Virus record (IMG/VR): IMGVR_UViG_3300046167_000798
From: a virus
Lineage: Duplodnaviria > Caudoviricetes
Strand: one strand, 5' to 3'
DNA length: 64,000 nucleotides
Position numbers and translations under genes: made by a program. The notes beneath the pieces were generated by a model. That model worked only from the letters and a program-made list of their open reading frames with translations. It was not told the DNA's origin and did not search any database. Positions 40,672 through 63,034 of this stretch are shown in pieces; positions within the stretch are counted from its first letter, which is position 1; each line of letters starts with the position of its first letter.

Positions 40672-41797
40672 AAATATTTAAAATTTCGTTAGGTATGTGA
40701 TTACTACCATGTGTTATTTTGTGTATAAGTTGTTTATTATATTCAAGTGTTGGCTCCATTAAATCATAAAGTTCATTATAATCTTTATTTTTTAATTTTA
40801 TTAGTTGTTCAATAATTAAATCATATCTTTTAAAAACATCTTCTTCATCGTCAAAAGAATAATCCAAAACATTATCATACAATTTAAAACCATACTTTAA
40901 AAGTTCTTTGTTTTGATTTGTAGAACCAAATGCAATAAAAGGTTGTTTTAAAAAAATACATCTAAATGTTTTTTCTGTAATGTAAGGAACATCCATTGAA
41001 GTTTCACCTGCCAAATTAAATAAGGCCTTTGGTGTTAAAATTCTATCAGAAAACTCACCAACAAAATTTTTATTTTTATTAGATATATCATCTAAGTTTA
41101 AAATTTCTTCATTCCAATATATAAAATCCTTATAGAAAGAATCATCTTTGATTATATCATTACCTACTCCTTCGGTATATAACTGATTCCAAGAAGTAAA
41201 ACCACAATCAAACAAATTTGAATTATATAACTTATCAATCATAATTCTTCTATGAATTCTTGGTCTTAAGTTCATATTCAGATACAATTTTTCAAAATCT
41301 TTTTCAATTTCTAAATCATAAACTTTACAATCTAATTTTCTTTCATTAATAAAATCTCTTCTTAGTTGTATATATGTGTGTTCTACTAACCAAGTAGGCC
41401 AATATATTATTTTAAATCTTTTTAAATTAATATCTTTAAGAAAATCTTGATATAGTTTAGGATTATCTGAACCATATACAAAATAAAAATTGCAATCTAA
41501 TTTTTCTAAATTAGTATCAAATTCTATAATTTTTTTATGTGTTCCTTCATATGCCCATTCATTAATAAAATCAATAAAAAAAGAAGATTGACATTCGGTT
41601 GGTAAAAATTGATACATATTTTTACAACTATTTTTTGATATATATTCAAGTGTATTACTTTCAAAGGAACTACCATCCTTAGAATAAAAATAGTTTGGTT
41701 GAGCAAAATAATTTATTCCGTCTAAGGTTTTGGATTCGGAATTACATATTGTTAAGATATAATCAAAAACTTTATTGTAAAAACTTCTTTCATCCAT
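40655..41797 (-). CDS. GT10-like putative glycosyltransferase, paralog 3
   Basis: NMNLRPRIHR, NLAGET, TEKTFR, QPF, GFKLYDNVLDYSFD. Confidence 0.5.
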   Translation of the reverse strand: MDERSFYNKVFDYILTICNSESKTLDGINYFAQPNYFYSKDGSSFESNTLEYISKNSCKNMYQFLPTECQSSFFIDFINEWAYEGTHKKIIEFDTNLEKLDCNFYFVYGSDNPKLYQDFLKDINLKRFKIIYWPTWLVEHTYIQLRRDFINERKLDCKVYDLEIEKDFEKLYLNMNLRPRIHRRIMIDKLYNSNLFDCGFTSWNQLYTEGVGNDIIKDDSFYKDFIYWNEEILNLDDISNKNKNFVGEFSDRILTPKALFNLAGETSMDVPYITEKTFRCIFLKQPFIAFGSTNQNKELLKYGFKLYDNVLDYSFDDEEDVFKRYDLIIEQLIKLKNKDYNELYDLMEPTLEYNKQLIHKITHGSNHIPNEILNIYENRN

Positions 41798-44388: not shown

Positions 44389-45335
44389 TTATATAACTTT
44401 TTAATTCCTGTTTCTAATTTTTCTGTTGGCTCCCACTCTAATAATTTTTTTATTAATTTATTATCAGAGTTTCTTCCTCTTACTCCAAGAGGCCCATCTA
44501 TATTTTTTATCTTTATATTCTTATTACTAATTCTAATAATCATTTTAGTAAAATCATTTATGGATATCATTTCTTCAGAACCAACATTAATTGGAGTAGT
44601 TACTTCTGATTTCATTAATCTTCGTAATCCTTCAACACACTCATCTACATATAAGAATGAACGAGTTTGTTTTCCATCTCCCCAAACTTCAATAGTATCT
44701 CCTTCATTTGATTTTACAACTTTTCTACAAATAGCAGCAGGTGCTTTTTCTTTTCCTCCATCATAAGTTCCCATAGGGCCGAATATATTATGTAATCTTG
44801 CAATTTTTGTATCTATTCCATAATTTTTTCTAAATGATAAATACAATCTTTCTGAGTATAACTTTTCCCAACCATATTCCGAATCAGGATTTGCTGGATA
44901 TGCTGAACTTTCTTCACAATTAGGATTATCAGGGTCTAATTGATTGTGTTCTGGATATACACAAGCTGATGAGGTATAAAGAACTTTATCAATACCAAAC
45001 TCTGAACATACCTTTAATACATTTAAGTTAATTATAGATGAGTTGTGCATTATATCAGCATCATTTTCACCTGTAAATATGTATCCTGCTCCACCCATAT
45101 CTGCCGCGAGTTGGTAAACTTCATCAACTCCATTACCATCTATAATCAAAGAAGATTTTACAAGATTTAGATTTCTTAAATCACCTACAATAAAATCATC
45201 ACATATATCTTCGTGATTAAAATATTCATGTGATTTTATATCAACACATCTTACATAATATCCTTCTGATTTTAATCTTTTGGCTAAGTGTCCTCCAATG
45301 AATCCACCACCACCAAGTACTACTGCTGTTTTCAT
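44361..45335 (-). CDS. GDP-mannose 3,5-epimerase-like NAD-dependent epimerase
   Basis: GGGGFIG, QLAADMGGAGYI, SSACVYP, PDSEYGWEK, WGDGKQTRSF. Confidence 0.85.
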   Translation of the reverse strand: MKTAVVLGGGGFIGGHLAKRLKSEGYYVRCVDIKSHEYFNHEDICDDFIVGDLRNLNLVKSSLIIDGNGVDEVYQLAADMGGAGYIFTGENDADIMHNSSIINLNVLKVCSEFGIDKVLYTSSACVYPEHNQLDPDNPNCEESSAYPANPDSEYGWEKLYSERLYLSFRKNYGIDTKIARLHNIFGPMGTYDGGKEKAPAAICRKVVKSNEGDTIEVWGDGKQTRSFLYVDECVEGLRRLMKSEVTTPINVGSEEMISINDFTKMIIRISNKNIKIKNIDGPLGVRGRNSDNKLIKKLLEWEPTEKLETGIKKLYKWLENIYQH

Positions 45336-46546
45336 ATTGCTAAACTTTTTATAAAATTTTTATCACTATCATCATTAATTATCTTTTTAATAACATTTCT
45401 ATTATATTCAAATCTTTGAAAATTATGTTTGAAAAAATCTTTAATTTCATTTTCTATTTTAGATAATCTGATTATTTCACTTTGTATCATTTTAAATCGT
45501 TTACTTGGATTTTCTTCCAAATCATATGAATGGTCAACTACATCATCGAACCAATCAAAATCAAACTTTTCTCTCATTCTTTTTATATGACCATGTGTTG
45601 CCAATATAATTGGTATCTGATAAAACCACAATGGTTGAGTAGATTTTTCCGTAATGTGTATTACATCCTTCCACTCATATTGAGTTTCAGTAACTATATT
45701 AATATAGGCATGTTTATATAAATTATTTTTATAAGTTAAATCATGTTGAGGTCCGTTTTTATCAAATTCAAAATTTTCAAATTTACTTTTTTTACTTGTA
45801 ATAGCATATAACCATTCAGCTTCTTTATCATATACTTCACTTTCTGTTTCATCAATGATTGGTGTATATGATGATTTAAAATAATCTATACAATCATTTT
45901 CTGTATTATAATAAGCTTTAAATTTATCTCCTTGTAAAAAACTATAATCTACTTTATCTAGTAAATTTTCTTTTTTTAGAAAAAGAATTAATGCAACTCT
46001 ATGTGATTTAAATGCTCTATTATAACATTGAAACAAACAATCTCTTTCTGTATCATATCCCCAACTCCCAGCTTCTTCAAATGTTCTTGCAATCCCAACT
46101 GGTATATGATTATTTGAATAAACATTTATATTACTATTTGCTTGTTGTTTTAAATTATCAATCAAATCATTTCCACAAAAAAGATAAAATTGTTTTTCAT
46201 CTATACCAATTGAATTTACATATTTTTTTATATCAATAATTGCATCTGGTGAATCACTTTCATGAAAAGTTACAAATAAAAACCTGATATCATATCCTTC
46301 TTTGTAAAGATTTATTATATCTAATGGTATTTCAAATTCTTTGTTTTCTAAATCCTGTGAAGGATATCCATATGTACGATAACATACATAATATGTTTTT
46401 TCTTTTTGAATATCATCTATATTACAAATAACATAATCATTTTTCATATCCCAATGACCAAATGTATCTAATATATTATCCTCAATATCCTCGTGCTGTT
46501 TTCTCAAAGAATCAGATAATAATATGTTAATTTTATTTGTACTCAT
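45332..46546 (-). CDS. GT10-like putative glycosyltransferase, paralog 4
   Basis: CYNRAFKSHR, NIVTET, TEKSTQP, FDDVVDHSYD. Confidence 0.5.
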   Translation of the reverse strand: MSTNKINILLSDSLRKQHEDIEDNILDTFGHWDMKNDYVICNIDDIQKEKTYYVCYRTYGYPSQDLENKEFEIPLDIINLYKEGYDIRFLFVTFHESDSPDAIIDIKKYVNSIGIDEKQFYLFCGNDLIDNLKQQANSNINVYSNNHIPVGIARTFEEAGSWGYDTERDCLFQCYNRAFKSHRVALILFLKKENLLDKVDYSFLQGDKFKAYYNTENDCIDYFKSSYTPIIDETESEVYDKEAEWLYAITSKKSKFENFEFDKNGPQHDLTYKNNLYKHAYINIVTETQYEWKDVIHITEKSTQPLWFYQIPIILATHGHIKRMREKFDFDWFDDVVDHSYDLEENPSKRFKMIQSEIIRLSKIENEIKDFFKHNFQRFEYNRNVIKKIINDDSDKNFIKSLAI

Positions 46547-46561
46547 GTTGTATATATATAT

Positions 46562-47770
46562 TTAAAAATTAATAATACTATTAGAAATATGAACATCTGT
46601 TTGTTTTGTAAATTCTAATATACTATTTTTATTATTTAAAAATCTATCTTTATTGTTTTTATAAAAATGTATTATTTCATTTTCCAATCTACTTAATCGT
46701 AAGCACTCTTCAATAATCATTTTTAGTCTTTTTGTATTATCTAATTCTTTATCATAATCATGATTAATAAAATCATCAAATAAATCTAAATTATAATCAT
46801 CTCTTAAAGTTTTAACATGATTGGGAGATGCAACAAATATAGGTAATATTGGTAAACAAAATGGTTTTAAAGATTTTTCTGTTATATGGATACCATCAAA
46901 CCAATATACTGATTCAGTAATTATATTTATGTAAGAATTTCTATAATCTTTATGATTAACTTTTCCTGCAAAATCATAACCTGTTTCAAATAAATTTTCA
47001 ACATCTTTAAAATCTGAACTGTGTGATTCGTAATCAGTTAATTTCGGTTTTTTCATTTTATTAACATGATTTTTTTTGTAAAAAGAAAATGACTTATTAA
47101 TGTTATTAAAATCACTTTCTCTAAACTCATCCCAGTCTGTTTTAGGTGGTGTTAGAAAAGAATAATTTGTATTATCTAAAAGTCCATACATATCTAATAA
47201 ACAAATTGTAAAAAATCTATGTTCTTTACCTTCTTTATTTACACATAAAAACATCTTATCTCTTTTTTCTTCATTCCAAACCAAATCAAAATACTTAAAT
47301 TTTTCTAATAATGTTTTTGCAGTATTCTTCCATAAAAAATTTGTTTTAAATGTTTTAACATTTGTTTTAGAGTTTAAATTTTTTAAATTGGAATCATTAT
47401 TAATTAAAATAATTTTTTCTTGATGATTATCAAATAAATTAAGTAATTTTTCTATTTGTTTATATGGTTGTGTTTCATGCATATCCATAAAAACTAATCT
47501 AAAATTATCTTCTTTTAATAATTCTTTTATTTTTTTTAGAAATACACTATCAGTAGAATATACATCTATAATATGGTCAATTGAAAAGAATGATATAAAA
47601 TCAATATAATAAAATTTTTCATCTGGATTAAAGATAATATCATCTGATAATCTTAAATTTATATCAACACTATTATCTGAAAACCACATAAAGTGATTTA
47701 ATGTATTTTCAATTGTTGAAGACTCATAAATACTATGCCTTAACTCATATAAATCTTCTAATATATTCAT
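46562..47770 (-). CDS. GT10-like putative glycosyltransferase, paralog 5
   Basis: CVNKEGKEHR, NIITES, TEKSLKP, FDDFINHDYD. Confidence 0.5.
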   Translation of the reverse strand: MNILEDLYELRHSIYESSTIENTLNHFMWFSDNSVDINLRLSDDIIFNPDEKFYYIDFISFFSIDHIIDVYSTDSVFLKKIKELLKEDNFRLVFMDMHETQPYKQIEKLLNLFDNHQEKIILINNDSNLKNLNSKTNVKTFKTNFLWKNTAKTLLEKFKYFDLVWNEEKRDKMFLCVNKEGKEHRFFTICLLDMYGLLDNTNYSFLTPPKTDWDEFRESDFNNINKSFSFYKKNHVNKMKKPKLTDYESHSSDFKDVENLFETGYDFAGKVNHKDYRNSYINIITESVYWFDGIHITEKSLKPFCLPILPIFVASPNHVKTLRDDYNLDLFDDFINHDYDKELDNTKRLKMIIEECLRLSRLENEIIHFYKNNKDRFLNNKNSILEFTKQTDVHISNSIINF

Positions 47771-48777
47771 TATCTATTCAAAAATTTTCTTCCCTTTTTT
47801 ATTTCATTTCTCCAATAATCTAAAAGGTCATTCATAGTTTCTTCAAAAGTATATTTTGGTTTCCATCCTGTATGTTTTCTGAACTTTTCTGTATTTGGTA
47901 CTTGTAAATCAGCATCAATAGGTCTTAACCTATCTTCATCTACTTCAATTGTAATATCATCTCTTGTAGATTGTGAAATTAAGTAGTTTAACATATCTCC
48001 AATCTTACAAGTGTACTCACCACCAATATTATAGTACTCACCACTAATTGGATTTTTAGTTACCAATAAATAATAGGCTTCTACTGCATCTCTAACATCT
48101 GCATAAGTTCTAAGTGAATCTAAGTTACCAACATATATTGTAGGTTCTTGTAATCCAGCTTCTATCATTGCTATTTGTTTTGCAAAAGTTGATTCTGAGA
48201 ATACATCACCTCTTCTTGGACCTGTATGTGTAAACATTCGTGTTGTCATTATGGTTATACCAAATGCTTCTGCATAATATCTACCTAATAAATCTGTTCC
48301 TACTTTTGATATTGCATATGGAGATGCTGGATGTATTGAACACTCCTCATCTATTGGTAATTTATCTTTTGGTACTCTACCAAATATTTCAGATGAAGCA
48401 CAAACATGAACTACAACATCATCCTCACCATAATCTCTTATAGATTCCATTAAGTTTGCAGTACCTATAATATTTGTTTGTAAAGTTTCAAGTGGAGCTC
48501 TAAAAGATGTTTTTGGATAAGATTGAGCAGCTAAATGAAATACATAATTTGCTTCAGATTGTTCTACTGCTTGAATTACTGATGGTAAATCATTCAAATC
48601 TCCATTGATTAAAAACAATCTATCTTTCTTGTTAATTCTATCAAAGTGGTGTTCTAAGTTATCTAATCTATCGTTCCATCTAATAAATCCATAGATATCC
48701 CAAGTTGTATTCTCAATAAGGTAATCTACCAAGTGAGAACCAACCATTCCTGTTATTCCTGTTATTAATACATTCAT
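47770..48777 (-). CDS. gmd: GDP-mannose 4,6-dehydratase-like
   Basis: TGITGMVGSHL, HLAAQS, ASSE.FG, SPYAISK, F.HTGPRRG, GNLDSLR. Confidence 0.8.
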   Translation of the reverse strand: MNVLITGITGMVGSHLVDYLIENTTWDIYGFIRWNDRLDNLEHHFDRINKKDRLFLINGDLNDLPSVIQAVEQSEANYVFHLAAQSYPKTSFRAPLETLQTNIIGTANLMESIRDYGEDDVVVHVCASSEIFGRVPKDKLPIDEECSIHPASPYAISKVGTDLLGRYYAEAFGITIMTTRMFTHTGPRRGDVFSESTFAKQIAMIEAGLQEPTIYVGNLDSLRTYADVRDAVEAYYLLVTKNPISGEYYNIGGEYTCKIGDMLNYLISQSTRDDITIEVDEDRLRPIDADLQVPNTEKFRKHTGWKPKYTFEETMNDLLDYWRNEIKKGRKFLNR

Positions 48778-51446: not shown

Positions 51447-52054
51447 ATCAAATCTTTTATTTCTTTATATATGTATTCTCCTATTAGTTTATAACCTTCT
51501 AAGTTTGGATGATAATCTCCTTCGTAGTAATTCTCTTCATCATTCCAAACCATTTTACTTCCATATTCCCAAACTGATTTTTTATTTACCATTTCTTCTA
51601 CTTGAAGCTGATAAGATAACGTTCCTTTTGGATTTATATAATATTTTGGAAAATTAAAATTATCATTTTCTATAAATGGATAAAATCCATTAAAGTAAAA
51701 CTTTTTATAACCATAAAGAAGTGTTTCAAATTTTTTAAATAACTCCTCAGGTGTGTATTTGTTGTACTTTTGATATCTATGAGGATATGAAAATACAATA
51801 ACGATTACATCTTCTTTATTTATAAACTTAAGATTCTCTTCTACCGCTTTATAAATGTATTCATTTCCAAATCCACAAACCCCAAGGTTAATATACGAAA
51901 TATTTAGCAAATTTCCAAGCCATTTTGGAAAAGAATTTTGTTCTCTTAGTTTTTCTATGAATTTTGGTGGTGTTGGATTCTCTTTATATTCAATTTCTGT
52001 TTCAACTCCATGCCCTGCCGTCCAACTATCTCCAAATGTAATTAATCTAATCAT
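51443..52054 (-). CDS. SGNH/GDSL-like protein, second paralog
   Basis: TFGDSWTAG, NLG..G.GN, DYHPN. Confidence 0.65.
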   Translation of the reverse strand: MIRLITFGDSWTAGHGVETEIEYKENPTPPKFIEKLREQNSFPKWLGNLLNISYINLGVCGFGNEYIYKAVEENLKFINKEDVIVIVFSYPHRYQKYNKYTPEELFKKFETLLYGYKKFYFNGFYPFIENDNFNFPKYYINPKGTLSYQLQVEEMVNKKSVWEYGSKMVWNDEENYYEGDYHPNLEGYKLIGEYIYKEIKDLI

Positions 52055-53406
52055 AAATTATTTATAAAATATTTAATATCTTGGTCGTTGTTTGGAAAAT
52101 TCTCAACTATTTTTTTATTTTTTTCAAACCGTTCTCTATTTGATTTAAAAAAGGTTTTAAATAAATCTTGATTATCATTTATCCTTTCAATCTCTTTTAG
52201 TGTTGCTTGAAATCTTTCTTTATCATTTTCTATATCATTGTATGAATGGTCTATAATATCTCTATAAAAATCAAAACCAAATTCTTCTTCCATAAATTTT
52301 ATATGGTCTTTAGTTGCAAATATGATTGGAAATTGATAGTAAAAGAAAGGTCTGATTGACTTTTCAGTTACATGAATAACATCATTTGGATAATCAAAGC
52401 AAGATTCGGTAATAATACTTACATACGAATCTTTATGAGTTTCATCTGTTTCAGGTATCATGAGTCCACCAGATGCTCCACCAGCTCCTTCAATATGAAT
52501 ATCAGGTCTTTCAAATCCAAAATAATTTAATTTAACATTTTGTTCATAATCACTTTTTTTAGTATCCATGACAATGAATTTCTCTATAATATCTTTTTTT
52601 GAATCTACATCATTTAATAAACAATCAAACTGAGTATAGTGAAAGTGCTCCCAAAAATCTTTTTTTTCATATGAGAAATTAAACAACATAGACCAATTAG
52701 TGTTTTTAAGAATATTTCTATCTTCTAGTTCTATTAATGTTGCAACTCTATGTGTTTTTGGTGTTTTATTAAAACAAGAAAAAAACTTATCACTTTTTTC
52801 TTTAAAATACGAAGAACCCAATTCATTCCAAATACTTGAAGATGTTATTTGTAAAAGATTTGTTCTAAAAAACTCAAAATTTGAATTTAACGATTCTCTA
52901 TACTCTTTTATTTTAGGATTGTTTGAAATGATTACTAATTTACTATCTGATATATTATTTTTTTTAAAATAGTTTACTACCGAAGTAATATCTTGTAAAT
53001 TTTCAGGTTCATGTTCTCTTATATATAAAAACTTTATATTATCACACTCACTTAAACATTTATTAATAGAACTTGGTAAATCAGTTTGAGAAAAAATATC
53101 ATGCAAACTCCAATGTGATTTTATAGCATAATAAAATTTAGTTTCAGGATTATTATATACTTCTGATACTTTATATTTGTTTATAGTAAATAAATTACGA
53201 GGATATCCTAATTGTTCATAGAAAAATCTTTCGTAAAAATCAAAGTAACCCAACTCATCTCTAAAATCAGTATCTCCTAAAAGATTTGCTAATGTATATT
53301 GAGGAGTATCTACTAAAACTGTTTCTAATTCATTTGAAGTTTCTTTTACTACCCAAGAATCATAAACAAAATTTAAAGTTTTTTTAATGTTTTCGTGTGT
53401 TCCCAT
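52051..53406 (-). CDS. GT10-like putative glycosyltransferase, paralog 6
   Basis: CFNKTPKTHR, SIITES, TEKSIRP, GFDFYRDIIDHSYN. Confidence 0.5.
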   Translation of the reverse strand: MGTHENIKKTLNFVYDSWVVKETSNELETVLVDTPQYTLANLLGDTDFRDELGYFDFYERFFYEQLGYPRNLFTINKYKVSEVYNNPETKFYYAIKSHWSLHDIFSQTDLPSSINKCLSECDNIKFLYIREHEPENLQDITSVVNYFKKNNISDSKLVIISNNPKIKEYRESLNSNFEFFRTNLLQITSSSIWNELGSSYFKEKSDKFFSCFNKTPKTHRVATLIELEDRNILKNTNWSMLFNFSYEKKDFWEHFHYTQFDCLLNDVDSKKDIIEKFIVMDTKKSDYEQNVKLNYFGFERPDIHIEGAGGASGGLMIPETDETHKDSYVSIITESCFDYPNDVIHVTEKSIRPFFYYQFPIIFATKDHIKFMEEEFGFDFYRDIIDHSYNDIENDKERFQATLKEIERINDNQDLFKTFFKSNRERFEKNKKIVENFPNNDQDIKYFINNL

Positions 53407-54547
53407 AATGGATAACTTTTACTGTATCTGATTTAAAACTTCTCCAAGGGTCAACTACAATAGAATCCTTTGGAAAATTAAAATCATGATGTTTACCCAT
53501 ATGTCCTAAAAGATACACAGCTTTGTACGGATGTGGTTGGTCGTATTCTGGTACAATTCCTTCTTCTTTACAGTAATGCCCTACAAGTATAGATGAAGAA
53601 CCATCTAAGTAGTGAACATCTGGTTTATATGCTTTACCAAGTATAACAATAGGAAGTTTATTTTCGTTAGCCAACTCTACTAACTTAAGTGCCATATTTT
53701 TTGCCTGTACTTCTCTTGCCAACATAATAGCATCAAATAAATCATAACCCAATCCTAAGTTTTCTGCCATATATCTTAATGCAATATTATCTCTTGGATG
53801 ACATCCACCACCATCTCCCATTCCAGCCTTCATATAAGCCGGTCCAAGTATTCTGTAAGTACTTCTTTCAAGTGCACCTGTTACAACATCAACATTCATG
53901 TTACCATTTTTTTCTGCAACATCTTGAATCATGTTTACTAATGCTACTTTTGTTGAAATAAAAGTATTATAGAAGATTTTAATTCCTTCTGCCTCATCCC
54001 AAGTACCAACTTCATATCGTGTACCTGGTTTAATGAATGTTTTATAGAAATCTAAAAGTATTTTTGCATCACCTGTCATTGAACCATCTTCTGTACCGAT
54101 GATTACCATCTCAGGATTAACCATATCCCATTTTACAGTACCCATAGCAATTAGATATGGATTGTAAATAAATCTTGTATTGGATAATCTGTCGATAAAC
54201 TCTCTTCTGATTGTACCAGGTAAAACTGTTGAAATAAGAACTACTAATTGTTCTTTATTTGTGTGTTTGTTTACTTCATCTAATACATTGTTAACGATTG
54301 AGTAATCGAAATCTTTATTTGGTAAATGTGATGTGGGTTCTCTTCCATCATAATCAGGATGGTGAGGTGTAGGAACAGCAATAAAGATTAATTCTCTATC
54401 TTTACAAACTTCTTCAATGGAACTAACCATTTGAAAATTAGCCGGTTCAACTTTTGTTACATCGTAACCTATTACTTCATGTTTTTCAGCCATTATTTCA
54501 GCTGATTCTTTTCCGAGTTTTCCAACTCCTATAAAACCTATTTTCAT
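53384..54547 (-). CDS. ugd: UDP-glucose/GDP-mannose dehydrogenase family
   Basis: GFIGVGKLG, STVLPGT, YNP, EGIK.FYNT, GDGGGCHPRD, LGKAYKP. Confidence 0.88.
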   Translation of the reverse strand: MKIGFIGVGKLGKESAEIMAEKHEVIGYDVTKVEPANFQMVSSIEEVCKDRELIFIAVPTPHHPDYDGREPTSHLPNKDFDYSIVNNVLDEVNKHTNKEQLVVLISTVLPGTIRREFIDRLSNTRFIYNPYLIAMGTVKWDMVNPEMVIIGTEDGSMTGDAKILLDFYKTFIKPGTRYEVGTWDEAEGIKIFYNTFISTKVALVNMIQDVAEKNGNMNVDVVTGALERSTYRILGPAYMKAGMGDGGGCHPRDNIALRYMAENLGLGYDLFDAIMLAREVQAKNMALKLVELANENKLPIVILGKAYKPDVHYLDGSSSILVGHYCKEEGIVPEYDQPHPYKAVYLLGHMGKHHDFNFPKDSIVVDPWRSFKSDTVKVIHYGNTRKH

Positions 54548-54581: not shown

Positions 54582-56789
54582 TTATTTTATATCGTAAAAT
54601 ATATTTGCTAATATCTTAATAACTGAGTGTTGTGGGTTATAATCTCCAGCAGATAATTTATATCTTAAATCTACTTTATTATTAAAGTGTTGTTGATTGT
54701 AACGACACACCTCTATCATTTCATTTCTTAGTTCTTTCAATTCATCTATTGATTTATTTTCTAGTAATGCAAGTATATCAGCAACCTTCTGAATTCTAAC
54801 ATTAACATCAGTATCATTATCATAATCTTCATTCCACCATTTATCAAATGTTTTAAATCCTAATTTTTTAAGATATTTTAATGTATGTGGATTTCCTATT
54901 AATAAAAAAGGATGTCCTAAATATATTGGTTTCCATATTTTTTCAGATAAGAATAAAATTTTCTCATCAGCTAATGTTTCAGTTACCAATGATACAAATG
55001 TATGTGAAAAATCAGATATCGATATATCGTTTGCCCAATTTACATCCAATGTTCTATCAATAGTTAGTGGTGTTATTGAACTAAGTTCTTTCAAATTTGT
55101 ATAAATACGAGAATCACCTTCTTTTAAATCAAACTCACCAATACTAATCATTCCTCTCTTCAGTAAATCATATTCAAATAATTTTGAACAAATTCCTATT
55201 CTATGAGCTCTTCCCATATTTCTATTATAGGATAAATACAAGTTCATTGATTCATGTGGGTGATATGGAATTACATCATCTGGTCTAAATTGTGGATTTA
55301 ACCATATATCAAATGCAGATTCTCCGATACAATTAATTTTTAAACCTTTTTCTTTTGCAGAATCAGATATTTTTAAATTACCCGAAATATAATAAACCGA
55401 TTCTTCTTTTATTTTAGATTCATCACACCATTTTTTTATAATTTCCAAATCGTTGTTTTTATCTCCACCACTATATCCCTCAAGTGTATGATAGAAAACT
55501 ATTCTAGCTCTATTTTCCTTTACATCTCTTATAAATTTTTTAGAAACACATTTAAATCCAATATCTTTATTTAATTCAAAATAAGCTGGATTATAGATGG
55601 GGATTAAATATAGGTGTTTGTTATTTTTTATAGTTTTTCTATCATATAGTTTTACATTTTCACGCTTATTTATAGGAGCAACCATTCCTTTAAATGTTTC
55701 CTTGGTCATAAATTTTTTTGGGTCTCCATGTAGTACATTCCACTCCCCCCATAGTTTAGGAATACTAATTTTTCCTTCTTCTTCCAAGTACCATGTTTTC
55801 GATGAAGTTGCTGGTCTATTAAAATCTAATATACTATCATAATCTTCAAGAGTTATATTGATATCACCAACATACAAATCCCATATACCAGTATAATATG
55901 ATTTTGGAATAAGATTGGGATTTAATTTTTTAATTCTAGCAAAACTAACCGAATAATCTCTACTATCATTTACAACTTGAAAATCAGCATCTACTTTGGA
56001 TTCTATTACTTTTTCAATTTCACCAACTAACTCTCTTTTTGTAATATTTAATTCATCAAATCCAAGATTTAAAATTTTATCTTTATATGGAGTATTAATC
56101 AATCCAAATAAAAGTTCACACGCATCATCAATATGTAAATGAGGTCTATGTGCTTCAGGGTCCCAAATTTCTACTGACTTCCCTTCTTTAATATCTCCTA
56201 TTAAATTATTTATAAGAATATCATTTCTCTGAAAATCTCCTCTTCCATATAAAGTAGATAATCTAAATATTTTAAAAGAGTTGTTTTCTTTTAACATTAA
56301 CTTCTCACATTCTATTTTAAGTTTAGAATAATGTGAGGTTACCATTGGTTCAGTATATTCATTAACTGCCTCAGTTGTTTTTCCATATACACTACAACTA
56401 CTCATAAAATAAAAATGTTTTCCAGAATTTTCATTATCAATAGTATCACGAAACATTTCAATTACTTTAGAAAATCTATCTACTTCTTCAAGTACAGTTT
56501 TATCATCATTTATATCTTGTAATCTTGGGGATGCTAAATAAAATATTTTATCGTAATTTTCTAAGTTATTTACGTTGTTTTTTAAATTTAAAATATCATC
56601 TTCAATAAACTCAAAATGGTCTTGTTCTAATCCATTGTATATATTGAATTTATCTGATAACTTATCGATTACATCGTATGTATCATAATTCATATTATCA
56701 CATATGGTAACATGAAATCTATCTAACAATAATCTCTTAGATAATTTAAGTCCTAAATAACCAGCTCCTCCTATTACTAATATTTTCAT
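54582..56789 (-). CDS. Fusion of NAD-dependent epimerase/dehydratase and GT10-like glycosyltransferase (paralog 7)
   Basis: N-half GGAGYLG, SSCSVYG, YSKLK; C-half SYNRNMGRAHR, SLVTET, SEKIWKP, HPF, GFKTFD. Confidence 0.7.
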   Translation of the reverse strand: MKILVIGGAGYLGLKLSKRLLLDRFHVTICDNMNYDTYDVIDKLSDKFNIYNGLEQDHFEFIEDDILNLKNNVNNLENYDKIFYLASPRLQDINDDKTVLEEVDRFSKVIEMFRDTIDNENSGKHFYFMSSCSVYGKTTEAVNEYTEPMVTSHYSKLKIECEKLMLKENNSFKIFRLSTLYGRGDFQRNDILINNLIGDIKEGKSVEIWDPEAHRPHLHIDDACELLFGLINTPYKDKILNLGFDELNITKRELVGEIEKVIESKVDADFQVVNDSRDYSVSFARIKKLNPNLIPKSYYTGIWDLYVGDINITLEDYDSILDFNRPATSSKTWYLEEEGKISIPKLWGEWNVLHGDPKKFMTKETFKGMVAPINKRENVKLYDRKTIKNNKHLYLIPIYNPAYFELNKDIGFKCVSKKFIRDVKENRARIVFYHTLEGYSGGDKNNDLEIIKKWCDESKIKEESVYYISGNLKISDSAKEKGLKINCIGESAFDIWLNPQFRPDDVIPYHPHESMNLYLSYNRNMGRAHRIGICSKLFEYDLLKRGMISIGEFDLKEGDSRIYTNLKELSSITPLTIDRTLDVNWANDISISDFSHTFVSLVTETLADEKILFLSEKIWKPIYLGHPFLLIGNPHTLKYLKKLGFKTFDKWWNEDYDNDTDVNVRIQKVADILALLENKSIDELKELRNEMIEVCRYNQQHFNNKVDLRYKLSAGDYNPQHSVIKILANIFYDIK

Positions 56790-57796
56790 TCTCTTACTAA
56801 ATCAGTTGTTACACAATGGAATGAACCACCTAAAGTTCTTGAATGTCTAATCTGACAATCAAGTGTATCGATTCCATATTTCTTTAAATCTGTTATTAAT
56901 TGTTTTTGTCTATTATCTACAATTACTGTATTTTCATCTACTGATAATAAATTTACTCCAATCCATAAAGATGCTCTTATTGTTTGGTGGTATCCAATAT
57001 CTACCATCGGTGGACACCAAATTTTATCCCAAGATTTTAAGAACTCAGGCATATTGTTTTCATTTACTCTTTCAGGATTTAATAAACACAATCCTTCTCT
57101 CAAAACTGCAATAGTTGAATCAATATGAATATATGAATATACATCTTCAATGGTATGAACTCTATATTCACTACCTAAGAAGTTTTGCAACCACTTAGCA
57201 CCCTTTAAATTACCGGTGTTGGATACTAAGTACAAAATATCGTTATTACATCTTAGAATGTTTGCCGCATCAAATACAGGCTCGTGGTTATTTAAAGTAA
57301 TTTTAGATAAATCCTCTCTTTGATACATTGAATCTAATAATCTAGGTTTAGGAGCAGCTACCCAATTAGCACCTTGTTCCATTTTTTCTATAAAGATATC
57401 CTTGAAACAATCTGTTTCATATTGTCTTGACCTTAAAGACATTGCTGATTCAATTATATTATTACCAATTACTGTTACAGTATCTCTTGGACAGAAAGTA
57501 TAATACTGAGAAGTTTCCCAATGTCCATTTGATATTGTTTTAGTAGTATCGATAGGTGATGGTCTATAAACCTTAACACCAACATCAGTTAAAAGATTAG
57601 AAAGGTTTTCTAAATCTTCATAAGTTTCATCATATACTTTTTGGTCCCAAAATCCTAATTCGTTTTTTGGTATAGAATCTTCAGTAGCATAATTTATACA
57701 ATGTAAATCCTTACCATGAGTTGGCATATTTGCATTATCTACTGTTCCTACTATAACCTCTTTGAGTTTTCCCCACTCATTGTTTACATTAACCAT
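56786..57796 (-). CDS. Amidinotransferase (glycine / inosamine-phosphate amidinotransferase family)
   Basis: NEWGKLKEVIVG, FCPRD, FDAAN (Asp), HIDST (His), GGSFHCVT (Cys) catalytic triad. Confidence 0.9.
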   Translation of the reverse strand: MVNVNNEWGKLKEVIVGTVDNANMPTHGKDLHCINYATEDSIPKNELGFWDQKVYDETYEDLENLSNLLTDVGVKVYRPSPIDTTKTISNGHWETSQYYTFCPRDTVTVIGNNIIESAMSLRSRQYETDCFKDIFIEKMEQGANWVAAPKPRLLDSMYQREDLSKITLNNHEPVFDAANILRCNNDILYLVSNTGNLKGAKWLQNFLGSEYRVHTIEDVYSYIHIDSTIAVLREGLCLLNPERVNENNMPEFLKSWDKIWCPPMVDIGYHQTIRASLWIGVNLLSVDENTVIVDNRQKQLITDLKKYGIDTLDCQIRHSRTLGGSFHCVTTDLVRE

Positions 57797-57809
57797 ACTT
57801 ATTGTTTAT

Positions 57810-59720
57810 TTATTGTTTATTATAATTATAAGAACATCTCCAATATCTATTTTTTCTCTGATAGTGGTATGCTCTGTGATAAAATTCTAAAGGTTCTAAT
57901 TCTTCTTTATCATAATGGTCTAAAGTTATTGTTTCTGAATCTAATAAACCTAAAGTGTTTTGTATTGTATCTTGTTTATATGTTTTTTGAATTGGATAAA
58001 TATTAGTATAATCTCTACACATATCTAAATTAAATCTTACAACATCTGATAAATCTTCTTTAAATTTATGTTTACAAAATTCTGTTAGTTCTTCTTGTAA
58101 CCTATCTCTATTTTGTGAAAATACAATAGAAGTTGCTCCTTTATATTCCCAAAAAATATCATCATCTCCTAATACTTGTCTACCCCAAAATTCGGCTCTT
58201 TCAAAAACACCTCTCAACGAATCCTCACTCTCCAATAATTCTTCGCCAATTATAGTATCTTTCTTTGTATAAAAATATTCTAACATATCTTCAACAATAT
58301 CAATATGCTTAATACCATATTTGTTGTAAATATATTCTAAGAGATAGTGTCCCCATCCATAATAATAAAATACTATTAAAAGATGGGAAAACAAATTACC
58401 TTTAACAACAATATCTCGTGTTGTCGTGTTCGTCCCAACCACCGCTAACGTTCTCTCTACTATATAATCTTCTAAATCATCAACAGTTAAATAAAATGTA
58501 TCTAGGGGTACATCAACTGTTTTTAATTCATATTTTTTAATATATTCAGGTTGTCCCATTTCCGCATTGTAAGTAATAACAAGTGGATGTACCATTAAAA
58601 AATCTTTTTGTCCTAATTCTATTAATCTTTGAATACCATTTTTTAAAGTATCATAAGTTTCATTTGGCATTGGCCAAATTAATTCTGAATATGTTGGTAT
58701 ATCAACTTCTTGATATTTTTTTAAGTATGTAAGTGCTTCTTCTGTTTTAAGATTTAATCTTTTTGATGCATCTAGTGTTTCTTGATTCAAAGATTGCATT
58801 GCAAATGTTACTCCTTTAAATAATCGAGTACCTGCTTCTTTATCCATCATTGCTATTTCATAGATTCTATCAGAATTTGCCTTTGCCCAAGTTACATCCC
58901 AAAATTTTGGCCATCCTGTTTTCTGTTTTGTTTCAATTACATATTTTGTAATATCAACATCTCTTGGCATCAATCCCCAATTTGAATCACATACTGCAAC
59001 ATACTCAATCTTTTTTCTTGCCATCCAATCAATCTCTGCTTTCACTCTTACCATATCAAACATTTTGATTTTCTGCCAATATGCATCTCCGATATCACAA
59101 AATGTACATTTGTAAGGACAACCTCTTAAAGTTTCATAAGTTACCTGCCACATTTGAGGCCCATGTTCCTTTTCAACTCTTTCCATAATCCAATCATAAA
59201 AACCTGAAAGGATTGGTGATGGAATAATATTCAAATCTTGTACTCTTGTTGGAAGTGGACAAAGTTCTCCTCCTTTTGGAAAAACATGAGGAATATCTTC
59301 AAACGTTTCTCCTTTATGAAATCGTTTTAATAATTCTTTTGATGCAAATTCACCCTCTCCTAAAACGGCAACATCAAACATTGGATAATTTGTAAAAAAC
59401 TCTTTATCTCGTTTATCAACATGAGGTCCTCCTGTGATTGTTAAACAGTTTGGATATTTTTCTTTTGTTCTTTTTGCTAATTCTTTATTATATTCCCAAT
59501 TCCAAACATAAGAAGATAACATCATTACATGAGGTTCATCAACCATATCATCTACATATTGTTTTGGTGGTTTTTTTTCAATCAAAACATCAGAAACTTG
59601 GTAATTTTCTTTTACCATTTTACTTGTACTCGCAAACATCCATTGGTAACTTATCGCAATAGGTAAGAAACTGTTTGGTCCGTATTTATCCGCTACTTGT
59701 ACAAGATATAAGTTTTTCAT
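57810..59720 (-). CDS. Cobalamin-binding radical SAM enzyme
   Basis: N-term SSYVW...GGPH B12-type domain; RGCPYKCTFC (CxxxCxxC). Confidence 0.88.
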   Translation of the reverse strand: MKNLYLVQVADKYGPNSFLPIAISYQWMFASTSKMVKENYQVSDVLIEKKPPKQYVDDMVDEPHVMMLSSYVWNWEYNKELAKRTKEKYPNCLTITGGPHVDKRDKEFFTNYPMFDVAVLGEGEFASKELLKRFHKGETFEDIPHVFPKGGELCPLPTRVQDLNIIPSPILSGFYDWIMERVEKEHGPQMWQVTYETLRGCPYKCTFCDIGDAYWQKIKMFDMVRVKAEIDWMARKKIEYVAVCDSNWGLMPRDVDITKYVIETKQKTGWPKFWDVTWAKANSDRIYEIAMMDKEAGTRLFKGVTFAMQSLNQETLDASKRLNLKTEEALTYLKKYQEVDIPTYSELIWPMPNETYDTLKNGIQRLIELGQKDFLMVHPLVITYNAEMGQPEYIKKYELKTVDVPLDTFYLTVDDLEDYIVERTLAVVGTNTTTRDIVVKGNLFSHLLIVFYYYGWGHYLLEYIYNKYGIKHIDIVEDMLEYFYTKKDTIIGEELLESEDSLRGVFERAEFWGRQVLGDDDIFWEYKGATSIVFSQNRDRLQEELTEFCKHKFKEDLSDVVRFNLDMCRDYTNIYPIQKTYKQDTIQNTLGLLDSETITLDHYDKEELEPLEFYHRAYHYQRKNRYWRCSYNYNKQ

Positions 59721-60409
59721 TTTGAGAATATACTATTTTTTGTTATATCTTTATAGGACTCCGAAGAATGAGTATCTTCGTGTTCTACATTAAGTTGATT
59801 AAATAAAATCAATCCTCTTGCTGCATCTTCTGGTGTCATATACATATGATACCCAAATAAATCAATATCATCTTCTAACTGAGATTTATTTAAATCTCTA
59901 CCATCATATCTAATCTTTTTTAAATACTCATATGCCCTTTTATCATCAGTTAGTATAATCCCACCTCTACCAATTGGTAATCTTTTTTTAATCTGAAAAG
60001 ATAAAACTTGCAGTGAGTTATTACCAACATACATATCTTTTGTAAATCTACCCGCAGAATCCCAAATATTAAAAGGTTCTAATTGATAAATACCTTTCCA
60101 TTCTGTATTTTCAAAAAATACTCTATATCCTGCATTTATAATTTGTTTAGGTACTGATATGTAAGTGTGTTTTGGTATTGATATTACATTACCTTCCTTA
60201 CGAATATATTTTAAACAAAGAAATAATCCATTTGTACAACAATCAATTGCAATTGCATATTTAGAACCAGCATATTCTGATATTTCTTTTTCAAACATTT
60301 CCACAATCTCGTGTGGTTTATTCCAATCGTAACCAAGTTCTCTAATTTGGTCTGGTTCAGGTCTTTGGAATTCTTTTGGTATTTTTCCGAGTGGCCAAGT
60401 ATTATGCAT
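59717..60409 (-). CDS. DegT/DnrJ/EryC1/StrS-family PLP aminotransferase, short form (230 aa)
   Basis: CCTNGL, DSA, SFQIKK (PLP Lys), GGIILTDD, G..MYM. Confidence 0.85.
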   Translation of the reverse strand: MHNTWPLGKIPKEFQRPEPDQIRELGYDWNKPHEIVEMFEKEISEYAGSKYAIAIDCCTNGLFLCLKYIRKEGNVISIPKHTYISVPKQIINAGYRVFFENTEWKGIYQLEPFNIWDSAGRFTKDMYVGNNSLQVLSFQIKKRLPIGRGGIILTDDKRAYEYLKKIRYDGRDLNKSQLEDDIDLFGYHMYMTPEDAARGLILFNQLNVEHEDTHSSESYKDITKNSIFSK

Positions 60410-61566
60410 TATATGTAAGGTGTTGTATCATTATTTAATTTACTATTTTTATATACTTCAAGAATTTCTTCTATATTATTATCTCGAACATTTACAACAG
60501 GTTTATTTCTATCTTCATTATTATAATATTTTGCAAATTCACTCCAAGTTGAATCAGGATTTGCTATAAGCATTCCACAGTAACTAAGACCGAATAAGTC
60601 AATAATATTAGCAAAAACATTACCATATGTTTTCATAAATTCTATATCCATTCCTGCTCTATATGCATTTTCTTCCATTGCATATCTAAAAAATACTTTT
60701 TCAGATATTCTATCCTTATATCTTAATTCATATGGCCTTAGAAATACATCAGGTAAATCATGTGAAATATAAAATTTTTGTTTTGGATTTATTTTTAGTA
60801 TTTCATCAATTATATCAAAATACATAGTATCAGGATAAAATTTATAATTATCGTTAACTGATTTTAATCCATGAATTTTTTCTTTATACATTTTGCCTAA
60901 ATTTGGGTCTGTATCATCCCATGTTTTTATTTCTTCATCATTTACTTTAACTCCATTAAATCTCCTTATATGAATACCAACACAATCATGTAATGAAGAT
61001 GATAAAGTTTCTTCCATATATGAGTGTCTTAATCTTATCTTAGTTAAAGGTCTATTATATGGGTCATATGAATCCTTTATTGATTTTGATGCATATTTGT
61101 TAACTACATCTTTTAAAGTTTCATATCCAAAATCAGAATGATAATGGTCTTTATCTAATATTCCTTTATTATTAAAAATTTTAGCCACATTCGATAGTTT
61201 TAACTTTTCTGATAAGTAAACATTTTCATTTGGTAAATCATATACTGTTTTAAATGATAATGTTTCATAATCAAAATTCCAAGTCCAATCTTGTTTTTGT
61301 AAATTTGATACAGATGGAAATGTGTTTGGCATATCAATCAGAGGTAATTCTGGCCAATGTTTTTGTTGTATTTGTATTTTATGAGAGTTTTTATTTATCT
61401 CAGATAAAAAATGTGCAATTTCCCAATGGAATATTCTATTACATAATCCTGTATCATTGTTACTAAGTGAAACATTGAAATTATTAAAATAATTATGAGC
61501 CTGTCCCCACCCTCCAAATGGTTCAATCCATCTTAGGGTTTTTTTAAAAATATCATGATTATTCAT
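60409..61566 (-). CDS. GT11/GT23-like fucosyltransferase-fold protein
   Basis: GLCNRIF, VGIHIRR, FYISHD, DLFGLSYC...STWS. Confidence 0.6.
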   Translation of the reverse strand: MNNHDIFKKTLRWIEPFGGWGQAHNYFNNFNVSLSNNDTGLCNRIFHWEIAHFLSEINKNSHKIQIQQKHWPELPLIDMPNTFPSVSNLQKQDWTWNFDYETLSFKTVYDLPNENVYLSEKLKLSNVAKIFNNKGILDKDHYHSDFGYETLKDVVNKYASKSIKDSYDPYNRPLTKIRLRHSYMEETLSSSLHDCVGIHIRRFNGVKVNDEEIKTWDDTDPNLGKMYKEKIHGLKSVNDNYKFYPDTMYFDIIDEILKINPKQKFYISHDLPDVFLRPYELRYKDRISEKVFFRYAMEENAYRAGMDIEFMKTYGNVFANIIDLFGLSYCGMLIANPDSTWSEFAKYYNNEDRNKPVVNVRDNNIEEILEVYKNSKLNNDTTPYI

Positions 61567-63034
61567 CTATTGTGAATTATTAGGATTATATACACCATCT
61601 TCAAAGTGTGTAATTTCACCTGATTTCATTGGTACATCGGGTATTGTTTGGTCAACATCTATTCCTTGATACCAAACTGCTAGTTCTGGAAATGTTTTAC
61701 AAAAATCCTTACCTCTTCGTTTATCATATTGTTCATAGAATGATTTGAAATCATGAAAGTGAGTATCGTTCTCATCTTCAGTAGTAACATGACCTGTTTT
61801 AACTACTTCTATATAATCTACCAATCTTTCTATTTGTGCAATTTCACCCTCACTAAATAATTCGTAAAAATCTTTATCTTGTTTTCTTGTTTCAAACCAC
61901 TTTGATAGTTTTTTGTGTAAAAATACTTTTACATCAGTTGGTAAAGATAATGGAGACATAAATGCAGGCCATCTTAAGATATTAAAATCAACATTAGGTC
62001 TATTTGGTCCATATTTTCTTTTTAACACAATCATATCATCTAAGAATTCATCTATTGAGAATAAACATAGTGAGTTAATTGTCATCATTACTGTTAAAGA
62101 ACGAAATATATCTTTATTTACCCCTTCAAGAAACGCAACCATATGACTTCTCCATTCAGGATAAATCAACCCATCTCTAATATAATCAGCATGAGGCCCA
62201 TAAGCTTCATTTGAAGTATATAAATCAAATTCTTTAATTGGTAATTCATAAGAAGCATCAATTAATCTTTGGATTCTTTTAAAGTTACCACCTAAGTTAG
62301 AATTTACAGCCAATCTAAGTTTATCAGAAGGATATCCTTTCATTTTATCTAAGAAACTCCAAAAGTTTGGAGATGCACAAGGTTCACCACCTGTAATTCT
62401 TATTTCTTCCAATCCTCCTTCAATCAAATCAGGCCACCACTTTAGAAATGCCTCTACATAAGGATTTTGTTCGAGGTATTTACCATTTGCATCCGCCCAT
62501 GAACCATTGTTTTGATATGCACCAGCTGATACTGATTTAAACTTTTGATAAGGTCCGAACTTATCAATATCTTTACCCCAAGTAGTGGAGTATCCAGCAT
62601 TACAATAAGAACACGCAAAATTACAAACTCTATCAAATGAAGCTTCTATTGTTTTTGGAATAATATCAACATCTGCTCCTAGTTCTTTAATCTTTGCAAT
62701 ATCTTCTTCTTTATAGATTTTAGATTTGTAAACCCTATCACCAATATTATCTCTACCAATATCTTCAATCTTCCAACAATAAGAACATTCAGCAGGTCGT
62801 GTTCCTTCCAACATCATTTTTCTCTGTCTTTTAGAGAAGTCTGTATTATGTAGTTCTTGTGGTCTATCTTTTAACTTTTCTGCATCGATTGGATGTGGTA
62901 AAGGTAAATGACATGAGTTCTTAAAACCCATGACCTAAGTGTAACGATACATTGTACCATTTAGCTGCACAAAAACTTGGTGATATACTGTTGAGATTTT
63001 TATCTCTCCATTTTCTTAAATTATCTGTTGACAT
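61567..63034 (-). CDS. Radical SAM enzyme with N-terminal Cys/His (twitch-like) extension (~488 aa, one frameshift)
   Basis: CNFACSYC, GGEP; removing one base at 62923-6 extends to MSTDNLRKW...FCAAKWYNVSLHLGHGFKNSCH. Confidence 0.85.

Follow-up and report, generated by a model that had tools for sequence, protein, structure and literature searches.

The window analysed here is a 64,000-nucleotide stretch of viral DNA (Duplodnaviria; Caudoviricetes; IMG/VR record IMGVR_UViG_3300046167_000798). Its positions 56786 to 60409 hold a cassette in which a short DegT-family aminotransferase (hereafter mini-DegT), a cobalamin (B12)-dependent radical S-adenosylmethionine (SAM) enzyme and an arginine amidinotransferase are encoded one after the other. 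The enzyme families, their catalytic residues, the operon packing and the repeated co-inheritance of the mini-DegT/amidinotransferase pair in sugar contexts form the observed basis for the reading developed below, namely that the cassette may make a guanidino sugar. The genes that bear on this reading are listed from high to low coordinates.

61567 to 62931, minus strand: N-terminal twitch radical SAM protein, 454 aa (NF033640; Pfam Radical_SAM)
60409 to 61566, minus strand: P0004, 385 aa, probable fucosyltransferase-like (GDP-6-deoxyhexose-type) glycosyltransferase, a language-model lead
59717 to 60409, minus strand: mini-DegT, 230 aa, pyridoxal phosphate (PLP)-dependent and sugar-aminotransferase-like (Pfam PF01041; AlphaFold2/Foldseek)
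57810 to 59720, minus strand: cobalamin radical SAM C-methyltransferase of the TokK/CysS/KedN5 type, 636 aa, as predicted from Pfam and PDB matches
56786 to 57796, minus strand: predicted StrB1-type L-arginine amidinotransferase, 336 aa (PDB 1bwd; AlphaFold2/Foldseek)
54582 to 56789, minus strand: fusion of a short-chain dehydrogenase/reductase (SDR) with a C-terminal domain of ~415 aa, 735 aa in all (Pfam Epimerase N-terminally)
53384 to 54547, minus strand: UDP-glucose 6-dehydrogenase (Pfam UDPG_MGDP_dh_N and central domain; PHROG 9148, 6e-96)
47770 to 48777, minus strand: GDP-mannose 4,6-dehydratase (GMD; Pfam GDP_Man_Dehyd, 1.4e-73)

The initial annotation had described a consecutive aminotransferase, cobalamin radical SAM enzyme and amidinotransferase, and 56786-60409 was indeed found to contain exactly these three open reading frames (ORFs), on the minus strand like every other gene of the window (GC ~0.30). 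The ends of the cassette ORFs overlap by 1-4 nt or are spaced by 13 nt; the junctions with the flanking genes are of the same kind. By this layout the cassette appears to be one tightly packed transcription unit, and the short overlaps and spacing suggest that its genes are probably co-translated. A scan of the sequence for promoters and terminators gave no signal above that of shuffled sequence.

The window is phage DNA, as it contains a portal gene (25028-26752) and a large terminase gene (27215-28807). The terminase is nearest to those of Microcystis phage Mel-JY01 (56%) and Flavobacterium phage immuto (54%), both of them distant myoviruses of the T4-like type. The source is a large, widespread and uncultured T4-like aquatic phage. 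A DNA-level search against phage records returned no matches.

Enzymes of the cassette

The amidinotransferase gave no Pfam or NCBIfam match above threshold and a weak signal for the arginine deiminase (ADI) C-terminal region (E 0.012); its family was assigned through PDB sequences and fold alone. Among PDB sequences it matched StrB1 (1bwd, 6e-96), the L-arginine:inosamine-phosphate amidinotransferase of Streptomyces griseus, followed by SxtG (7e-60), HsvA (2e-57) and AGAT (3e-51). An AlphaFold2 model built with 50 homologues in the alignment reached a pLDDT of 95.9 and was superposed by Foldseek on StrB1 with a TM of 0.97, an rmsd of 1.3 Å and 46% identity, which places it in the pentein fold. 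The corresponding TM values were 0.91-0.93 for AGAT, SxtG and HsvA and ~0.63 for DDAH and ADI. Asp176, His224 and Cys328 align with Asp179, His227 and Cys332 of StrB1, so that the intact Asp-His-Cys triad claimed in the initial annotation was borne out. His224 and Cys328 are conserved in at least 90% of the 50 homologues; moreover, R104, D105, R124, D226, R243, S276 and H327 are invariant or almost so among the homologues, and the positions Asp105, Arg124, Asp226, Arg243 and Ser276 are common to StrB1 and the phage protein.

The phage protein is colinear with StrB1 apart from two one-residue gaps. In contrast, alignment with SxtG and HsvA requires insertions of 6-7 residues at query residues ~160-170, which the phage protein and StrB1 both lack. 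This insertion is presumably the 170-loop helix, whose absence is reported to open the StrB1 site to bulky acceptors. Fritsche and colleagues reportedly described the 170-loop in 1998 as the loop that defines StrB1. The alignment shows no helix insert at this loop, and an open site is thus predicted for the phage enzyme. Human AGAT (1JDW), SxtG (6U1R) and HsvA (5WPI) have in common with the phage protein the pentein fold and the mechanism through a Cys-amidino intermediate, but are more distant from it, at 31-38% identity and 177-206 bits versus 325 bits for StrB1. By sequence and model, the phage enzyme is StrB1-like rather than glycine-amidinotransferase-like, and a putative new member of the StrB1-type amidinotransferases. 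Its placement with StrB1 derives from bit scores and structure, as the amidinotransferase tree (193 sequences) has no characterised leaves; by short motifs, no exact orthologue of StrB1, SxtG or HsvA could be recognised among the sequences fetched. It is also the best-conserved gene of the cassette, at 80-96% among relatives compared with 35-64% for its neighbours.

The resemblance to StrB1 extends to fold, triad, colinearity and partner, since the phage gene accompanies a DegT-family aminotransferase just as StsC functionally partners StrB1 in streptidine biosynthesis. The settings differ: StrB1 belongs to an aminoglycoside cluster, whereas the phage gene lies in an island of nucleoside diphosphate (NDP)-sugar and glycosyltransferase genes, its partner aminotransferase is a 230-aa single-domain form, and no inositol-pathway genes, kinase or phosphatase adjoin it.

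The mini-DegT matches Pfam DegT_DnrJ_EryC1 (PF01041) at 1e-18, with 68 bits against a cut-off of 19.8, and its AlphaFold2 model has a pLDDT of 90.8. Foldseek aligned it with ArnB, GDP-perosamine synthase, CalS13 and PseC at a query-based TM of 0.6-0.68 and a target-based TM of 0.38-0.44, the alignments spanning ~230 of ~370 target residues and thus the large PLP domain only. Lys142 aligns with the Schiff-base lysine, both within the S-F-x-x-x-K motif of 7b0d and, by offset, with Lys188 of ArnB. The best PDB sequence match is this same 7b0d, a glutamine:scyllo-inositol transaminase (1.9e-7). No variation was seen across 38 homologues at D117, K141/K142 or the G147-x-G149-G150 turn. A DegT-type aminotransferase had been proposed at this position, and the family and catalytic lysine agree with that proposal; the size does not, because the protein lacks the two-domain architecture of ~360-400 aa and is ~140 residues shorter than any characterised member. 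At E <= 1e-5 there were 2219 homologues, and the 120 listed measure 196-292 aa, mostly 220-250. The short length is kept across the listed homologues; therefore the mini-DegT is not a broken gene, and it appears by sequence to represent a very large DegT family with a single domain, whose existence calls into question whether sugar transamination requires the C-terminal domain, as has been assumed.

The 636-aa protein carries Pfam B12-binding (PF02310) and Radical_SAM (PF04055) domains, and its CxxxCxxC motif reads C-P-Y-K-C-T-F-C. Its PDB matches were TokK (7kdx, 3.3e-75, residues 17-496) and CysS (5.6e-46), in agreement with the cobalamin radical SAM assignment made initially. The NCBIfam KedN5 model matched at 4.8e-66, with 223 bits, below its cut-off of 700, and over residues 16-388 only. 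A class B C-methyltransferase is a reasonable reading of this sequence. The B12-binding domain and radical SAM core are common to it and TokK, ThnK and CysS; it differs from them in its sugar context, in ~140 C-terminal residues that do not align with TokK, and in being dispensable in sister phages. In fact, its gene is missing from several relatives (L007-L010, L122/L123, L135, L139 and L152; handles of this form denote fetched loci), some of which have one or two ORFs of unknown nature in its place. Such replacement points to an optional tailoring step. The idea of a B12 radical SAM enzyme as a constant, core member of the initially annotated cassette was accordingly dropped.

The replacing ORFs form an observation of their own. 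At L007 8470-10043 and L010 9187-10008, one or two ORFs of 244-280 aa with no Pfam match stand where the B12 gene would be; the 280-aa protein of L007 and the 273-aa protein of L010 are homologous at 33% identity, and similar sequences occur in 13-15 of 80 amidinotransferase loci. They may be a putative alternative tailoring enzyme.

The second radical SAM protein, at 61567-62931, matches the NCBIfam model NF033640 (N_Twi_rSAM) at 2.4e-76, with 257 bits against a cut-off of 170, as well as Pfam Radical_SAM. It is kept in all ten close viral relatives at 64-95% identity. A search against PDB sequences gave no usable match and no detectable likeness to any solved structure. A role as a sugar or cyclitol oxidase or epimerase is possible.

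Recurrence of the gene pair and its cellular relatives

Amidinotransferases of this kind occur in at least 585 IMG/VR stretches and in 2489 protein clusters; 80 of the stretches were fetched, and they represent 18 clusters at 70% identity. Ten viral contigs keep one gene order: twitch radical SAM, P0004, mini-DegT, a variable position, amidinotransferase and SDR fusion. Chance would not give an arrangement kept in this way among related contigs. More broadly, all 14 loci of the window's own cluster have a mini-DegT no more than 3.5 kb from the amidinotransferase, as do four further clusters (5/18), and the pairing reaches amidinotransferases only 43-48% identical to that of the window. In ten loci the two genes are spaced by just 2-23 bp (L177, L179-L184, L224, L234 and L235); these represent two clusters, with amidinotransferases 63-72% and 46% identical to the window's. 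One of the four further clusters is that of the cultured cyanophage S-SCSM2R, where the pair sits among five glycosyltransferases. Co-occurrence of the cassette in other phages had been put forward initially as a check, and for the pair it was found.

A tree of 89 mini-DegT sequences was used to follow the state of being next to an amidinotransferase. This label changes twice on the tree, compared with 25.9 changes in shuffles, a contrast that is inflated by relatedness, and the difference implies that the pair has been passed on jointly as a subfamily of its own. The reverse is not the case: just 10/75 viral mini-DegT loci have an amidinotransferase while 65/75 are without one, and the proposal that the mini-DegT always travels with the amidinotransferase was rejected.

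A small 2-oxoglutarate (2OG)-Fe(II) oxygenase gene was also found to abut the viral amidinotransferase in ten loci, at 5-51 bp in nine and at 159 bp in L182. The oxygenase genes are located at L001 11498-11989, at ~9500-9990 in L231, L236, L238, L239, L243 and L246, and downstream of the amidinotransferase in L178, L179 and L182. These loci span several clusters, including that of the cultured phage S-SCSM2R, and the arrangement suggests that an additional hydroxylation is coupled to the amidino chemistry.

Among cellular sequences, the nearest labelled branches of the amidinotransferase tree are metagenome-assembled genomes (MAGs) of Pirellulaceae, Victivallales and Kiritimatiellia. In these genomes of the Planctomycetes-Verrucomicrobia-Chlamydiae (PVC) group, genes for a full-length DegT, radical SAM/SPASM proteins, transketolase subunits and a GT9 heptosyltransferase lie around that for the amidinotransferase, a set of functions that matches its surroundings in the phage. 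The PVC MAGs also encode a small radical SAM protein with weak relatedness to that of S-SCSM2R. Across the neighbourhoods of 80 bacterial homologues, no protein of the window's cassette was found to recur by tblastn, and contexts were heterogeneous. GlmS-like and kinase-like genes accompany the Paenibacillus homologue, and aldolase-SDR and SDR genes that of a Bdellovibrionales MAG. As the bacterial contexts differ, the amidinotransferase subfamily is not confined to a single pathway.

The best bacterial homologue (52%) is found in Vibrio zhanjiangensis, in a compact cluster (L014 266-7667) that encodes a major facilitator superfamily (MFS) transporter, an asparagine-synthase-like amidotransferase, an AMP-binding enzyme and an extra arginyl-tRNA synthetase. 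The gene content resembles that of a natural-product cluster with arginine as precursor.

The sugar island and related phage modules

From ~35 kb to the end of the window, nearly every ORF that could be assigned to a family is a sugar-nucleotide enzyme. Six SDR epimerases/dehydratases (including GMD), an RmlC-type epimerase, the UDP-glucose dehydrogenase and a PfkB kinase were identified, along with split transketolase-like subunits, a DUF5672 protein and a GDSL-like protein. The cassette thus appears, from these family assignments, to lie in a ~30-kb block of soluble glycan-building enzymes. A UDP-glucose dehydrogenase is also encoded near 28/80 viral amidinotransferases. None of the 30 island ORFs (35100-64000) has a convincing transmembrane segment, and family scans of the island ORFs detected no flippase, polymerase or lipid-carrier transferase. 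With such proteins missing, the acceptor of the glycan is probably cytoplasmic.

The fusion downstream of the amidinotransferase had been described as an epimerase-glycosyltransferase. The first half of this description holds, as residues 1 to ~300 are an extended SDR (Pfam Epimerase, 1e-21) with best PDB matches to 6vo6, the 6zl6 series and MoeE5. The second half is less clear. The C-terminal domain of ~415 aa has no Pfam match, a weak language-model atlas lead to GT10 (0.80), and an hhalign match to phage ORFs carrying PF00852 with 62% probability and E 7e-5 over 94 columns. The island ORFs that have no family assignment group into sets of paralogues. At least four copies of the C-terminal family occur in the window (35100-36149, 38705-40018, 40655-41797 and 54582-55829). 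Another paralogous family, likewise with no Pfam match, is present in three copies (45332-46546, 46562-47770 and 52051-53406), and the two families look like an array of novel glycosyltransferases. P0004, which is always upstream of the mini-DegT in the window's clade, had no Pfam, NCBIfam or PDB sequence match. By language-model features its nearest neighbours are viral hypothetical clusters, with O-FucT, NodZ and FUT8 clusters at 0.94-0.95; its fucosyltransferase-like character is a lead only.

Split transketolase/E1-like subunits, of the type that bind thiamine diphosphate, recur near amidinotransferases in both phage loci and PVC-group MAGs. They are found in the window at 36306-36836 and 40027-40671, at L091 8985-9905 and L078 13755-14660, and in L177, L208 and L220. 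Their recurrence may mean that the sugar pathway includes a step of two-carbon branching or chain extension.

Mini-DegT genes that occur apart from an amidinotransferase offer a point of comparison. In 59/80 fetched mini-DegT loci, a GMD gene starts at most 100 bp downstream of the mini-DegT, and in the loci that were typed a hexapeptide acetyltransferase precedes the mini-DegT while GMD and GT10-like genes follow. Phage immuto has a mini-DegT followed by a PglB-like acetyltransferase, an SDR and glycosyltransferases. By analogy, the acetyltransferase/mini-DegT/GMD modules of most viral mini-DegT loci (L095-L173) look like an N-acetyl-perosamine-type pathway with a truncated aminotransferase. 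The GDP-perosamine and N-acetylperosamine pathways (GMD, Per, PerB) make a 4-keto sugar, aminate it and cap the amine, and the phage modules, with their left-handed beta-helix (LbH) acetyltransferase, use the same mini-DegT family as the cassette. This logic of dehydratase, aminotransferase and N-acyl capping fits a route from keto-sugar to amino-sugar to guanidino-sugar. The cap is an acetyltransferase there and an amidinotransferase here; furthermore, the mini-DegTs fall on a separate branch and GMD is not adjacent in the window, in which no hexapeptide acetyltransferase was detectable. By the same analogy, the amidinotransferase would hold the capping position in the lineages where it is linked to a mini-DegT.

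The guanidino-sugar reading and its rivals

We favour the reading that the cassette amidinates an amine installed by the mini-DegT on an activated sugar, giving a guanidino sugar that is used by transferases of the island, and assign it a probability of roughly 0.55. A nucleotide-activated keto-sugar would be supplied by an SDR dehydratase of the island, a candidate being GDP-4-keto-6-deoxymannose made by the GMD at 47770-48777. The mini-DegT, with PLP on Lys142, would transaminate this to an amino sugar. Cys328 of the amidinotransferase would then take the amidino group from L-arginine, forming a thiouronium intermediate with release of ornithine, and pass it to the sugar amine. Amidination would thereby replace the N-acetylation of the related phage modules. 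In some lineages the TokK-type B12 radical SAM enzyme could add one or more C-methyl groups. Finally, P0004 and the C-terminal part of the fusion, both fucosyltransferase-like, would attach the residue to an acceptor in the cytoplasm, with a virion protein as the most likely one. In this scheme we infer which sugar and acceptor are involved, in what order the steps run, what the B12 methylase does and what the final target is. The initial annotation had drawn the same path from keto- through amino- to guanidino-sugar, and the recurrence of the pair and the capping logic of related modules lend it support that is qualified by the loci described next.

Several points weigh against this reading. 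Of the viral amidinotransferase loci sampled, about half are without a mini-DegT at distances up to 10 kb. These include the L012-type cluster (14 loci, e.g., L211, L215-L217 and L219), with 47-49% identity to the window's amidinotransferase; at L012 7183-14107 the setting is not one of sugar genes, the neighbours being an AAA ATPase, a DUF2201 metallopeptidase/VWA protein, a calcineurin-like phosphoesterase and a sulfotransferase, and the amidinotransferases of this type possibly have a different function. In the Vibrio context, the asparagine-synthase-like, AMP-binding and arginyl-tRNA synthetase genes have the look of a small-molecule cluster. StrB1 itself acts on a phosphorylated aminocyclitol, not on an NDP-sugar. 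As the mini-DegT has no C-terminal domain, its substrate could be unusual, and since the mini-DegTs linked to an amidinotransferase make up a separate subfamily, the analogy with GMD and perosamine may fail for them. GMD lies 11 kb from the mini-DegT, so that its link to the cassette is by analogy. Lastly, the functions of viral amidinotransferases and mini-DegTs are predictions from sequence and model.

Some of these points are what would be expected if the amidinotransferase acted on a small non-sugar amine and produced a soluble guanidino metabolite during infection (homoarginine, guanidinoacetate or an amidino-polyamine, for example), in which case it would lie among sugar genes through the architecture of the island and not through a shared pathway. 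Characterised relatives do use acceptors of this kind, namely polyamines for HsvA, glycine for AGAT and lysine for AmtA (PMC4887976). The many viral loci that lack a mini-DegT, the resemblance of the Vibrio context to small-molecule biosynthesis and the far stronger conservation of the amidinotransferase than of its neighbours point the same way. However, mini-DegT and amidinotransferase genes abut each other in divergent lineages, and the closest cellular relatives adjoin DegT, radical SAM and GT9 genes. The protein is also nearer to StrB1 than to the small-acceptor enzymes by score and loop architecture. Moreover, the viral amidinotransferases that lack a mini-DegT still have mostly sugar enzymes as neighbours (Ugd, RmlC, SDR, sulfotransferase with adenosine 5'-phosphosulfate (APS) kinase, radical SAM and 2OG oxygenases). 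On balance a small-amine substrate appears unlikely. The likeness to StrB1 can instead be taken further, to a streptidine-like guanidino-cyclitol in place of a guanidino-hexose. Here the twitch radical SAM enzyme would oxidise a hydroxyl group of a cyclitol or sugar, as BtrN does, the mini-DegT would aminate the resulting ketone, a kinase would phosphorylate and the StrB1-like enzyme would amidinate. StrB1 being the closest solved relative, the match of the mini-DegT to scyllo-inositol transaminase, the constant presence of the twitch radical SAM gene, the small radical SAM gene beside the pair in S-SCSM2R and the PVC MAGs, and the PfkB kinase of the island all speak for such a product. Against it, family scans of the island detected no inositol-phosphate synthase, sugar-phosphate cyclase or Gfo/Idh/MocA dehydrogenase, and of the streptidine-pathway enzymes sought among the 30 island ORFs (inositol dehydrogenase, kinase and phosphatase) none was found except the distant PfkB kinase. 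With a twitch radical SAM protein that resembles no solved structure and surrounding genes for NDP-hexose enzymes and glycosyltransferase-like proteins, the cyclitol product seems quite improbable.

Slightly less probable again is amidination of a finished macromolecule, be it the amines of an assembled glycan, lysines of virion or host proteins (giving homoarginine) or a DNA base. An open active site of the StrB1 type could admit large acceptors, all proteins of the island are soluble, and a second, distant 'glycine amidinotransferase' was found in the virion proteome of S-SCSM2R (PMC12801897). Yet such an activity has no precedent within the amidinotransferase family, and so close a coupling to an aminotransferase points to a small-molecule amine produced in situ. 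Family scans revealed no DNA-modification genes beside the amidinotransferase, and the DNA-modification variant was set aside for want of such a neighbour.

The pair has been reported before in a different light. In the Synechococcus phage S-SCSM2R, described in 2025, ORF305 (AHBA_syn-like), ORF306 (radical SAM) and ORF309 (inosamine amidinotransferase) were termed 'antibiotic synthesis genes', and antibiotic production, competitor inhibition or host modulation was proposed without experiment (PMC12801897). Its mini-DegT (37%) and amidinotransferase (43%) are homologous to those of the window, with a radical SAM gene between them and glycosyltransferases around. Unlike the cassette proteins, its radical SAM protein has 266 aa and is of neither the B12 nor the N-twitch type (best PDB match 7wzv), and a 2OG-Fe(II) oxygenase abuts the amidinotransferase. 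Pelagimyophages and cyanomyophages carry a host recognition cluster (HRC), a large variable island that has been read as modifying the host O-chain (PMC7029224). As in the window, the island belongs to T4-like phages of aquatic habitats and holds glycosyltransferases, a UDP-glucose dehydrogenase and radical SAM cassettes, but neither an amidinotransferase nor an aminotransferase is mentioned in the text searched (PMC7029224). The terminase of the source phage is closer to those of Mel-JY01 and immuto than to the HRC phages. An ocean survey of auxiliary metabolic genes discusses the creatine pathway in viruses (PMC11360552). A guanidino sugar is proposed neither in PMC12801897 and PMC11360552 nor in the searched text of PMC7029224.

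Amidination in place of acylation, in a phage amino-sugar module with a single-domain DegT, would be a new pathway variant. To our knowledge, guanidino groups on sugars are found mainly in antibiotics of the aminoglycoside type and not in glycans, and we know of no guanidino sugar building block described so far in viral or bacterial glycans. If the favoured reading is true, the product would be a permanently cationic glycan residue, unknown from any natural glycoconjugate. We suggest, tentatively and with less confidence than for the cassette itself, that a large and widely distributed group of aquatic phages uses a dedicated module of mini-DegT and StrB1-type amidinotransferase to make a nucleotide-activated guanidino sugar for their virions or the host surface. 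The number of IMG/VR stretches and protein clusters given above implies that this chemistry could be widespread in aquatic viromes, where the amidinotransferase is at present annotated as creatine or antibiotic metabolism. The two genes are carried by S-SCSM2R, which is in culture on Synechococcus WH7803, so that the question is open to direct testing. A guanidino sugar made by a phage would represent new glycan chemistry, with consequences for charge and adsorption and a bearing on resistance to glycosidases or on recognition by hosts and grazers.

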